The notes under the pieces: generated by a model
Seen by the model: only the letters and a program-made list of their open reading frames with translations
What the model was told of the DNA's origin: nothing
The model's database searches: none
Program-made: the position numbers and the translations under genes
Shown: positions 43,981-45,704 of the stretch, piece by piece
Position numbering within the stretch: the first letter of the stretch is position 1
Layout of the letters: the number at the start of each line of letters is the position of its first letter
From: an uncultured Staphylococcaceae bacterium
GTDB lineage: Bacteria > Bacillota_I > Bacilli_A > RFN20 > CAG-826
NCBI GenBank assembly: GCA_964608215.1
Contig: CAZSMV010000003.1
Location: forward strand, 1 to 63,486
Reading direction: 5' to 3'
DNA length: 63,486 nt

Positions 43981-44310
43981 TTATAAATTAAATGAAATTA
44001 ACGGCTCAATATTATATTCTTTAAATTTATTAAGAACTAATTTTAAAAGAAATCTAGAATAAGATAAAGAATTTATATCATCATTATTTGGCCATTCATC
44101 AATTAATAAAAGAGGTTTAAAAAGCGATGGTTCCACTTTTAAAATATATTCTTCAAACTGTCTATCATTTTTAAACATTAATATTTTAGAAAATTTATAA
44201 ACATCCACATAAAATTCTTTTGGATTATTAGGAATATCTTTTTTATAAATAGGTTCTTCTAAATTAATGTTTTCAAATAGATAATCATGTTGAATTTTAT
44301 AGTTTTCCAT
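43981..44310 (-). CDS. Hypothetical protein, last gene of the DUF4417 operon
   Basis: 109-aa ORF coupled to the upstream gene by a TAATG overlap. Confidence 0.65.
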   Translation of the reverse strand: MENYKIQHDYLFENINLEEPIYKKDIPNNPKEFYVDVYKFSKILMFKNDRQFEEYILKVEPSLFKPLLLIDEWPNNDDINSLSYSRFLLKLVLNKFKEYNIEPLISFNL

Positions 44311-44666
44311 TAAAGATATAATGCAAGAAGAGTTTTCTTTTCTTTTGCAAGATTAAGCATTCCAAAAAGAACATTTGCAGCTTCAATAAACTCTTTGTTT
44401 CTAGATTTTTTAATTCTTCTTTCGACAACTTTAATTGCCCCATCAAGCTTCTCATAAGGAATCTCTTCTTCTTCCCAACCACCAATTAATGTATCAATTT
44501 CATCATTAATATCTTCAAAAACCATACCTTCATTAAGTAAATAGAATTGTCTTTCAGTAAAATATTTAATAATAATATTTGGGTTATCCCATGTCCAACC
44601 ATATGGTCTATTTTCAAGTGTCTTTGGAACAATTAATGCCCTTGGTTTAGTAATTTTTTCCATCAT
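44310..44666 (-). CDS. Small acidic hypothetical protein, putative immunity protein
   Basis: FEDINDEIDTLIGGWEEEEI acidic motif; starts 2 bp after the putative toxin stop; AGGAGA RBS. Confidence 0.55.
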   Translation of the reverse strand: MMEKITKPRALIVPKTLENRPYGWTWDNPNIIIKYFTERQFYLLNEGMVFEDINDEIDTLIGGWEEEEIPYEKLDGAIKVVERRIKKSRNKEFIEAANVLFGMLNLAKEKKTLLALYL

Positions 44667-44667
44667 T

Positions 44668-45048
44668 TTATTCATCTCTCCTTTTAATTCTAAAATGCGT
44701 TCTTTCTTGATAATCCTTTTCATCTCCTTTTAAAGTTTCACCTTTAATAACATCTACATAAGTTCTGGTTTTTAAGTCTAATACTCTAACATAACCAGAT
44801 GGATCTGCAATCAATACATAATCAGATTCGTTTTTATGGAATTTAATTTTATAGCCTTCAAAATATGGCAATCCATTTTCGGCATATTTTTTAACTAAAG
44901 CATCCATATCAACAACTCTCATCTTATCTTTATATTTATTATATCTTTTTTTAGCGGATTTCAGCATATTCCTTAATCTTTTATTCTTTTTAGCTAAATG
45001 TTTTTCTATTTTAACACTTCTAGAATAACTACCTTTACCACCTAACAT
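44668..45048 (-). CDS. Basic protein with N-terminal GGKGS motif and putative toxin domain
   Basis: MLGGKGSYS start; ADPSGYVRV..Y...G....THF C-terminal motif; overlaps the DUF4417 stop codon. Confidence 0.5.
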   Translation of the reverse strand: MLGGKGSYSRSVKIEKHLAKKNKRLRNMLKSAKKRYNKYKDKMRVVDMDALVKKYAENGLPYFEGYKIKFHKNESDYVLIADPSGYVRVLDLKTRTYVDVIKGETLKGDEKDYQERTHFRIKRRDE

Positions 45049-45704
45049 ATTTTTGTCCCCTTTTTATATAACCTTCTAAAATCTTCATATTCTTCATAAT
45101 TTATTCTTGTGTTTTTCAAAATATTCCGTTCTTGTTTACCGAGTTTTCCATATAAAAGCACTTTTTTAGGATTTAGTATAATCATCATAATCCTAAATAA
45201 ATATTCATCATAAGATGATAATGCCATATATTTTGAACAACCATGAATACCTGTAACAAATATATTAGAATCTTTATAATTCATTAAATATATCGATGTT
45301 GTTTCATCGCCAAATCTTAGCGAAGGAATAATTTTTATACCTGAATAAGCTAAAACGGCATTATATAAAGCATTTAGATAAATTATGAATCTTTGAATAT
45401 TTCTATTCATTTTCTTGCTAACACTAAGATCGATTCCACAAACTGAATGGTATTCTTTTAATTCAGTAATTTCATCAAATACCTTTTCAAATCTTGGATA
45501 AATATAATTGTCTGGCATATAAAAACATATTGATGTAATTTTTGCATAATATGATTTTCTATGATGCCATGGAGCAATATATTTTGGCTTAACTTTCACG
45601 TAAGCACTTTTAGGAATTATTGGAAATCCCTTATCATCAAAAGAGACATTTTTTGATACAAGCCATTCTCTTAATTGACTTGCTATTTTAAAATCTAAGG
45701 TCAT
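45042..45704 (-). CDS. DUF4417-domain protein
   Basis: GFPII, CFYMPD..Y.RF, GIDLSV, GIKIIPSLRFGD, GIHGC and P.KVLLYG pattern. Confidence 0.75.
   Translation of the reverse strand: MTLDFKIASQLREWLVSKNVSFDDKGFPIIPKSAYVKVKPKYIAPWHHRKSYYAKITSICFYMPDNYIYPRFEKVFDEITELKEYHSVCGIDLSVSKKMNRNIQRFIIYLNALYNAVLAYSGIKIIPSLRFGDETTSIYLMNYKDSNIFVTGIHGCSKYMALSSYDEYLFRIMMIILNPKKVLLYGKLGKQERNILKNTRINYEEYEDFRRLYKKGTKIC

Follow-up and report, generated by a model that had tools for sequence, protein, structure and literature searches.

Introduction

MuF proteins that carry C-terminal toxin domains and are followed by small immunity open reading frames (ORFs) are established phage-borne polymorphic toxins (Zhang et al. 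2012, PMC3482391; Jamet et al. 2017, PMC5576092). Other described systems of related layout are the CdiA, Rhs and LXG toxins, the effector-adaptor pairs of bacterial secretion systems, and the type II toxin-antitoxin modules. Here, we compare with these systems a four-gene operon (g1 to g4) of an uncultured Staphylococcaceae bacterium, encoded within a stretch of 63,486 nucleotides (nt) (contig CAZSMV010000003.1 of assembly GCA_964608215.1, positions 1 to 63,486; hereafter, the window), in which a gene of the DUF4417 family is followed by genes for a candidate toxin and a candidate immunity protein. We propose that this locus is, on balance, probably a divergent member of a widespread and apparently undescribed class of polymorphic toxin-immunity cassettes.

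The constant part of this class consists of the DUF4417 gene and the short leader of the next, translationally coupled, small basic protein, and its variable part of the C-terminal toxin domain and a small acidic immunity gene directly downstream. In the literature, we found no description linking DUF4417 (PF14386) to toxins or to a glycine-rich leader.

Leader-bearing proteins with variable C-terminal domains follow DUF4417 genes

The initial annotation of the window, made from its sequence alone, had put forward a pattern in which DUF4417 genes are often followed by MGGRG-starting proteins with variable C-termini, and had proposed a gene-neighbourhood analysis of DUF4417 homologues as a check. 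We investigated these neighbourhoods in a survey of one genome per species, seeded with canonical DUF4417 motifs, which confirmed 166 stretches and from which we retained 80 loci. In 65 of the 80 loci, a gene with a glycine-rich leader started between -120 and +320 nt of the DUF4417 stop codon, mostly at a gap of -4 to +2 nt, and a leader gene was found on the same strand within 2.2 kb of DUF4417 in 72 loci. The background frequency of leaders was 0.029 per interval of equal size, corresponding to an approximately 28-fold enrichment beside DUF4417. This background uses the stricter of two counts; a looser leader criterion matched 100 of 2119 ORFs, including further genuine leader genes.

The leaders resolve into two classes, A (MGGRG[AS]) and B (MG[AG]GxxGGFGxTxG[SA]), with defined non-glycine positions at R4 in class A and at F9 and T12 in class B. 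The conserved glycine, arginine, phenylalanine and threonine residues are encoded by all of their synonymous codons, indicating that selection has acted on the leader peptide, and that the similarity does not reflect homology of the DNA only.

Behind the leader, the proteins are highly diverse. Removal of the first 20 residues from 56 leader proteins left C-terminal sequences that fell into 28 BLAST clusters, in which we identified the Pfam domains Ntox50 (five proteins), DUF6883 (two), the HNH-type nuclease LHH (one) and NlpC/P60-CHAP (one), as well as weak matches to PBECR1 and SprT-like. In three pairs of loci (L034/L037, L023/L034 and L036/L044), the DNA is 86-100% identical across DUF4417 and over the initial ~50 nt of the gene that follows it, after which identity falls to ~40%. 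A small ORF lies downstream of 50 of the 56 leader proteins, with a median isoelectric point (pI) of 4.66, against 9.87 for the toxins, and its family tracks the family of the toxin: 22 locus pairs were concordant, versus a single pair that shared the downstream but not the toxin family.

In four loci (L081, 3173-5381; L090, 1160-3657; L087, 5022-5432; L088, 5095-5313), we additionally identified arrays in which two to four MGGRG-leader genes in succession surround a single DUF4417 gene. The leader gene is placed upstream, and not downstream, of DUF4417 in L029, L039, L067 and L071.

Variable cargo, breakpoints directly after the leader, a co-varying acidic gene and arrays of leader genes are hallmarks of polymorphic toxin-immunity systems. 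The pattern put forward was borne out for the canonical loci.

The DUF4417 operon of the window and its candidate toxin

Four tightly coupled genes, transcribed divergently from an XRE regulator, had been described in the window, with a DUF4417 protein encoded first and a very basic 126-aa protein second. We confirmed the coordinates (Table 1) and the junctions of 1-7 nt, which comprise a 7-nt overlap between g1 and g2, a 1-nt gap between g2 and g3 and a 1-nt overlap between g3 and g4. The assignment of g1 to DUF4417 was likewise upheld by a match to Pfam PF14386 (E = 2e-13; 50.7 bits versus a cut-off of 28.9) that covers profile positions 9-172 of 183; g1 also matches PHROG 8680 and the C-terminal half of PHROG 940, the latter annotated as 'nuclease'. 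All four genes encode proteins under purifying selection, as indicated by ratios of nonsynonymous to synonymous substitution (dN/dS) between the window and locus L003 of 0.13 (g1), 0.11 (g2), 0.04 (g3) and 0.17 (g4).

Four residues of DUF4417 (D65, D92, S94 and Q104 in the numbering of g1) are invariant across 60 diverse members of the family and are kept in g1, and the alignment of these 60 sequences has an alternating beta/alpha pattern, which suggests an enzyme-like α/β domain. Searches of the PDB with a single DUF4417 sequence and with the 60-sequence profile returned no match, and neither g1 nor g2 had a tblastn match in 50,697 phage records. In one search, 491 phage records contained a match to DUF4417 itself, and phages frequently encode the domain as a fusion with ParB. 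Weak but recurrent Pfam matches of DUF4417 to DpaA_N, AvrE and PAZ_2 were judged to be uninformative.

The basic character of g2 (pI 9.89) and its motif, ADPSGYxR…YVD…G…THFRIxRR, were confirmed. Four residues (K67, D82, R88 and H118) are invariant across 67 members of the g2 family, and seven others (K5, Y8, N49, G85, Y86, T117 and E126) are nearly invariant. An exhaustive profile search recovered 86 family representatives at 50% identity, nearly all of 120-150 aa, and a second search 71 clusters. The family is essentially absent from PHROGs, and a pattern scan of viral contigs yielded 80 pattern matches, none of which was confirmed.

An AlphaFold2 model of g2 built from 67 sequences was of high confidence (predicted local distance difference test, pLDDT, 94.1; predicted template-modelling score, pTM, 0.86), with a predicted fold in which two long helices at the N-terminus precede a beta-rich domain. 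The suggestion of the initial annotation that g2 has a small RNase-type domain was not supported by homology: an Ntox50/BECR-fold RNase was rejected on the basis of a probability of 1.3% in hhalign against the Ntox50 profile, the lack of a Pfam match, and a Foldseek search of the PDB that returned no BECR or colicin D match. A similarity to the C-terminal domain of T4 RNase H (E ~1e-3 to 0.02, against Pfam and PDB sequences) is confined to lysine-rich helices and was attributed to chance. Foldseek also found no match to the model in BFVD. We regard g2 as a new putative toxin family, whose predicted fold matches nothing in the PDB or BFVD. The invariant Lys, Asp, Arg and His would fit a small metal-independent nuclease.

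The candidate immunity protein and the accessory gene g4

The acidic g3 (pI 5.33) had been proposed as an immunity-like partner of g2, and this proposal gained support from every locus that we could read. The open frame of g3 extends back to 44723; the 118-aa form was chosen because a GGAG ribosome-binding site fits the MMEKIT start. A g3-family protein of 104-131 aa, with a common '(Y/W)E.EE(I/L)P' motif and a C-terminal helix, is encoded within a few nt 3' of every g2-family gene with readable surroundings. In L013 (7588-9267), three g3 paralogues flank one g2 gene, and L014 and L015 each carry a tandem duplication of the g2-g3 pair; DUF4417 is missing from all three loci. The tandem g2-g3 g2-g3 arrangement of L014 (7188-8749) adjoins an ATP synthase operon. 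Upstream in L003, we found an orphan fragment (7566-7895) in which most of g3 is joined to the start of g4. In view of these associations, and of a MuF protein described below, we consider it likely that g2 and g3 form a toxin and immunity pair.

The fourth gene had been read as a possible orphan immunity gene. It is not an obvious one: g4 (pI 5.01) is a conserved gene found only in the window's close clade, and lies 3' of g3 in L001, L003 and L005-L008, is truncated in L004, and is absent from more distant g2-g3 loci. The sequences of g3 and g4 are unrelated, and we rejected the possibility that they are paralogues; g4 is possibly an accessory or second protective factor. Searches of Pfam, PHROGs and PADLOC with g2, g3 and g4 returned no family match, nor did any of g1 to g4 match the PADLOC defence models.

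The four-gene module is found in the same order, and in other chromosomal settings, in L001, L003 and L005-L008. Its upstream neighbour in these loci is usually an AAA_21 gene, in the position held by the XRE gene in the window. In L001, L003 and L005-L007, an AAA_21 ATPase gene of 374-380 aa is located ~140-190 nt upstream of DUF4417 on the same strand, and may represent a fifth component that is optional.

The g2 domain and g3 recur in a MuF toxin

In locus L102 (7001-8080), we identified a 359-aa protein (P0095) in which Phage_Mu_F (E = 8e-10) carries the g2 domain as a C-terminal extension. The gene directly follows an SPP1-type portal gene (SPP1_portal), and is followed in turn by a gene for a 104-aa g3 homologue (BLASTP 4e-5 to the window g3, and 5e-16 to another g3). 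The window has no such fusion, which was found in the distant relative P0095 only. The recurrence of the g2 domain together with g3 behind two different front ends is the behaviour of a toxin-immunity pair.

Among the g2 proteins that are fused to MuF or extended at the N-terminus (P0095, P0061 and P0099), the domain in P0095 begins right after 'MNLQLF/S', the N-terminus of P0061 reads 'MNIQFF/GGK', and a third pre-domain sequence reads 'NF/GGKK'. The 'MNLQLF/S' type of sequence resembles the cleavage site of the Prp protease in ribosomal protein L27 and in some phage head proteins of Firmicutes. A motif of the Prp type would suggest that the released toxin has a free N-terminus, as the stand-alone g2 proteins do.

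DUF4417 pairs are also found in phages. In the Mycobacterium phage Serenity (Fromanvirus; L017, 403-2080), gp1 is a DUF4417 protein and gp2 a protein of 335 aa that starts MGGRGSKGG, with a long glycine-rich tract and a sub-threshold match to DUF3626; the genome has its DUF4417 gene at the left end, and similar left-end matches were obtained in many other mycobacteriophage records. In the Streptococcus phage phiARI0468-4 (L016, 2530-4345; gp25-gp24), a ParB-DUF4417 protein is followed by a protein in which the GGRG motif is internal ('LGGGRGANF'), after ~70 residues, and the pair is located just before the terminase gene. A JAB-like HxHPx6SxxD motif read in the streptococcal phage protein 3' of DUF4417 had no Pfam support and was set aside.

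Clades of DUF4417 and exchange of cassettes

The DUF4417 proteins form clades A, B and W that coincide with the N-terminus of the partner protein, the nearest neighbour being of the same class for 47 of 47 proteins. The window belongs to clade W, a separate clade with ~16-20% identity to the canonical members, in which we additionally place L001, L003, L007, L010-L012, L106 and L108. DUF4417 genes of this clade are always followed by a g2-family gene, and then by g3.

A second cassette in L003 (14358-16466) consists of a canonical DUF4417 gene, an Ntox50 protein of 117 aa that starts MSGGNSGSKGG (E = 1e-11), and an ORF of 100 aa, and sits divergently beside a close homologue of the window XRE gene. 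The XRE gene and promoter region are ~85-90% identical between the window and L003 until ~40 nt before the DUF4417 ribosome-binding site, beyond which the two loci hold unrelated DUF4417-toxin-immunity cassettes, indicating that exchange can involve a whole cassette. Genes for AbiEii/DUF6088 and for HinfI restriction-modification lie between and beside the two cassettes of L003.

Most canonical loci are small chromosomal islands, and not complete prophages. The commonest larger neighbour of canonical cassettes is Peptidase_M78 (ImmA/IrrE), in 8 of ~40 loci; others are terminase (four), DNA methylases (four), AAA_21 (three) and helix-turn-helix (HTH) regulators. Pairs of XRE and Peptidase_M78 genes are found upstream of many other DUF4417 cassettes, including those of the relatives L010 and L108. 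In the window, the XRE gene is present and divergent, with no M78 gene.

The island surrounding the operon

The operon lies in an island of ~4.5 kb (43500-48032) that holds g1 to g4, the XRE gene, and two IS110 fragments, and is located between ychF and a cold-shock protein gene (Table 1). It is bounded by direct repeats of ~215 nt (families D1 and D2) that are 94-95% identical, and each repeat includes the identical terminator-like hairpin ACCCTAATAATAGGGT with a T-run after it. The island has the appearance of an insertion between the cold-shock gene and ychF, with duplication of the target region. The XRE gene has Pfam matches to HTH_19, HTH_26 and HTH_3 (E = 6e-12 to 2e-9), and is adjoined within the island by the degraded IS110-family insertion sequence. 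Approximately 230 nt 3' of g4, an AT-rich inverted repeat of 11 bp on the minus strand (43721-43755; ATTTCAGTTGT … ACAACTGAAAT) may be the operon terminator; it was not picked up by an automated terminator scan of the window. The window has a base composition of ~28% G+C, and contains a class B RNase P RNA, which points to a low-GC host of Bacillota/Mollicutes-like type.

Table 1. Positions of the operon, its regulator and the island features within the window
Feature	Position	Strand	Description
g1 (DUF4417)	45042..45704	minus	220 aa; ORF call and Pfam PF14386
g2 (candidate toxin)	44668..45048	minus	126 aa; N-terminus MLGGKGSYSRS
g3 (candidate immunity protein)	44310..44666	minus	118 aa from MMEKIT
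g4 (conserved acidic protein)	43981..44310	minus	109 aa
Divergent promoter/operator region, g1 to XRE gene	45705..45903		199 nt intergenic
XRE-family HTH regulator	45871/45904..46458	plus	195 aa from TTG 45871; 184 aa from ATG 45904
Left direct repeat of island	43286..43499		~215 nt; terminator-like hairpin 43478-43493
Right direct repeat of island	48033..48242		just 3' of cold-shock protein gene
IS110-family transposase fragments	46766-47200 and 47363-47713	minus	DEDD_Tnp_IS110 C-terminal part and Transposase_20 part

Proposed mechanism

In the mechanism that we propose, the XRE protein would repress the divergent promoter and so keep the operon off. On derepression, DUF4417 (g1), the toxin (g2), the immunity protein (g3) and the clade-specific accessory protein (g4) would be made together; g2 would probably attack nucleic acid through its invariant Lys, Asp, Arg and His, and g3 would bind g2 and neutralise it in the producer cell. 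DUF4417 would act either on the leader or through it, whether as an adaptor or as an enzyme of processing or modification, and would be required for deployment of the toxin; it would take the part that MuF plays in proteins that join the g2 domain to a phage head protein. As the g2-g3 pair can instead be found in fusion with MuF, for which a role in packaging toxins into phage heads is predicted, we consider a role of DUF4417 and the leader in delivery or maturation, as put forward in the initial annotation, to be the best reading of their association. We give action of DUF4417 through the leader an even chance.

A bolder proposal, which we advance tentatively and consider possible but rather doubtful, is that DUF4417 forms the core of an unrecognised deployment mechanism, reading the leader of ~15 residues and modifying, processing or loading the effector, for example onto phage DNA or into capsids, for transfer to another cell. 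The ParB fusions of DUF4417, and its location adjoining terminase or the ends of genomes, would fit such a mechanism. If this were true, hundreds of 'hypothetical' gene pairs would belong to a single new system of delivery, whose cargo families would number dozens at least; the pairs would include gp1-gp2 of Serenity and the DUF4417 pairs of streptococcal prophages, and g2 would be a new toxin fold among the cargo.

Several points weigh against the interpretation of the locus as a polymorphic toxin-immunity cassette. The ORF calling of the survey was heuristic, and the co-variation of DUF4417 and leader is partly expected from the simple linkage of adjacent DNA. Clade W was seen with one toxin family only, that of g2, and the swapping of domains is therefore demonstrated for clades A and B only. 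The N-terminus of g2 is only loosely like the canonical glycine-rich leader: MLGGKGSYSRS is alignable to the class B leader (G-K/H-G-S/G-Y/F-S/G-x-S/T), yet is not recovered by the automated leader criteria, and in the wider g2 family the N-terminus is conserved as M[SGA]D[SAY]KxxYS (K5 and Y8 in at least 90%) and is not glycine-rich. The interpretation of the initial annotation is supported in part. A constant glycine-rich leader is found in the canonical classes A and B, with only a loose likeness in g2; a polymorphic toxin family is evident for clades A and B, with 28 clusters, breakpoints, and Ntox50 and LHH domains.

Further points concern the proteins themselves. No similarity of g2 to a known toxin fold or family was detected, and the best Foldseek hit of its model in the PDB had E = 0.4, with template-modelling scores of at most 0.3. 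Reading by eye, with no predictor run, found no signal peptide or transmembrane segment in g2, and Pfam revealed no known trafficking domain. The g2-g3 pairs of L013 and L014, which lack DUF4417, indicate that DUF4417 is not strictly needed for the persistence of the pair. The AlphaFold2 model of DUF4417, from seven sequences, was poor (pLDDT 60), and its Foldseek output therefore carries no weight. The evidence is computational throughout, and it is from this that we infer the toxicity of g2 and its neutralisation by g3, together with the biochemical activity of DUF4417 and the route of delivery.

Alternative explanations

The main rival to a delivered polymorphic toxin is an intracellular toxin-antitoxin or abortive-infection module, in which an XRE switch (with M78 in relatives) would sense phage or DNA damage, DUF4417 would be a sensor or co-effector, g2 would kill or arrest the producer with g3 as its antitoxin, and nothing would be delivered. 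The surroundings of the cassettes resemble defence islands, with AbiEii/DUF6088, HinfI and type III restriction-modification, DEAD/MZB helicases and AAA_21 ATPases, and the prominence of Peptidase_M78 as the commonest upstream neighbour (the 8 of ~40 loci given above) agrees with such a module, as does the occurrence of some g2-g3 pairs on their own, like toxin-antitoxin pairs, and of no secretion signal or known trafficking domain. However, a constant leader joined to at least 28 unrelated C-terminal families at sharp breakpoints is a signature of polymorphic toxins, and is atypical of toxin-antitoxin systems. The arrays of immunity paralogues, the presence of the g2 and g3 domains in the MuF phage-head module, the classic polymorphic-toxin domains Ntox50 and LHH (PMC3482391), and the lack of a PADLOC match for g1 to g4 also argue against an intracellular module, which we consider unlikely.

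We regard as improbable a second alternative, in which the main enzyme would be DUF4417, with DNA or nucleotides as its substrate, the leader proteins would be interchangeable specificity or regulatory subunits that dock through the leader, and the acidic proteins would regulate the complex and not confer immunity to a free toxin. The invariant polar residues D65, D92, S94 and Q104 suggest catalysis by DUF4417, its frequent fusion to ParB suggests action on DNA or nucleotides, and the stop-start overlaps suggest that DUF4417 and the next protein form a complex. Against this, several leader proteins hold complete, self-sufficient toxin domains (Ntox50 and LHH), and the g2 domain of the MuF fusion, like that of L013 and L014, has no DUF4417 partner; the pairing of basic and acidic proteins, with co-variation of their families, fits a toxin and its immunity protein.

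Finally, an ordinary prophage or mobile-element remnant, with g2 to g4 as non-toxic small structural or regulatory proteins and a leader likeness due to low complexity only, is very improbable: the degraded IS110 fragments and bounding repeats of the island, the lack of family annotation for g2 to g4 and the low complexity of glycine-rich N-termini would agree with it, but all four genes are under purifying selection, the leader is ~28-fold enriched with its non-glycine positions kept through synonymous change, and known toxin domains occupy the same slot.

Implications

The polymorphic toxin-immunity reading provides a testable functional context for DUF4417, a widespread domain of unknown function, and a simple rule by which the class may be recognised, in which DUF4417 is followed by a leader-bearing small protein and then by a small acidic protein. 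This rule would allow many hypothetical genes of phages and islands to be annotated. The locus adds a putative toxin family, its cognate immunity family and a companion gene, and the occurrence of g2-g3 both in a cassette and in a MuF toxin offers a natural experiment on the alternative deployment of one toxin. The pair of leader and DUF4417 is additionally a candidate portable targeting tag.

Comparison with known systems

Type II toxin-antitoxin modules under XRE/COG2856 (M78) control resemble the DUF4417 cassettes in the small basic toxin beside a small acidic neutraliser, in the XRE gene, with or without M78, upstream, and in the defence-island-like setting. They differ in that the toxin of the DUF4417 cassettes precedes its neutraliser, which has no DNA-binding domain, and in that the cassettes have a third constant gene, DUF4417, and a constant leader that carries dozens of unrelated toxin domains.

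The effector-adaptor pairs of type VI and type VII secretion systems (Eag/DUF1795, DUF4123 and Lap chaperones) share with the DUF4417 cassettes a companion gene that tracks the N-terminus of the effector, and not its toxin domain. In contrast to these pairs, there are no secretion-system genes near the DUF4417 cassettes, the invariance of Asp, Ser and Gln residues in DUF4417 suggests an enzyme, and fusions of DUF4417 to ParB are frequent in phages.

The similarities to CdiA (with its VENN junction), Rhs and the LXG toxins of type VII secretion systems are more extensive, and comprise a constant N-terminus, a variable C-terminal toxin and a sharp recombination junction, a co-varying immunity gene directly downstream, extra arrays of immunity or toxin genes, and the Ntox50 and LHH domains. 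In the DUF4417 cassettes, however, the constant part of the toxin spans only ~15 residues, neither a domain for secretion or trafficking nor a repeat region or releasing peptidase can be recognised, and the conserved companion is a cytoplasmic-looking α/β protein (DUF4417) that is encoded upstream.

The MuF toxins likewise combine a small toxin domain with a small immunity ORF that follows it, are associated with phages and mobile elements, above all in Firmicutes, and share Ntox50 with the DUF4417 cassettes. The toxin of the window is a separate small protein, whereas MuF systems append theirs to the C-terminus of MuF; the role of constant partner falls to DUF4417, encoded by its own gene, together with a leader of ~15 residues; and most DUF4417 cassettes are located in chromosomal islands that lack head genes. 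g1 is a member of DUF4417, and g2 lies outside the Ntox50/BECR group and is not a MuF toxin. The window locus fits the DUF4417 cassette class in layout, pairing and regulation, with a leader that is only loosely alike, and the g2 domain and a g3 homologue occur elsewhere as a true MuF toxin-immunity pair beside an SPP1-type portal gene.

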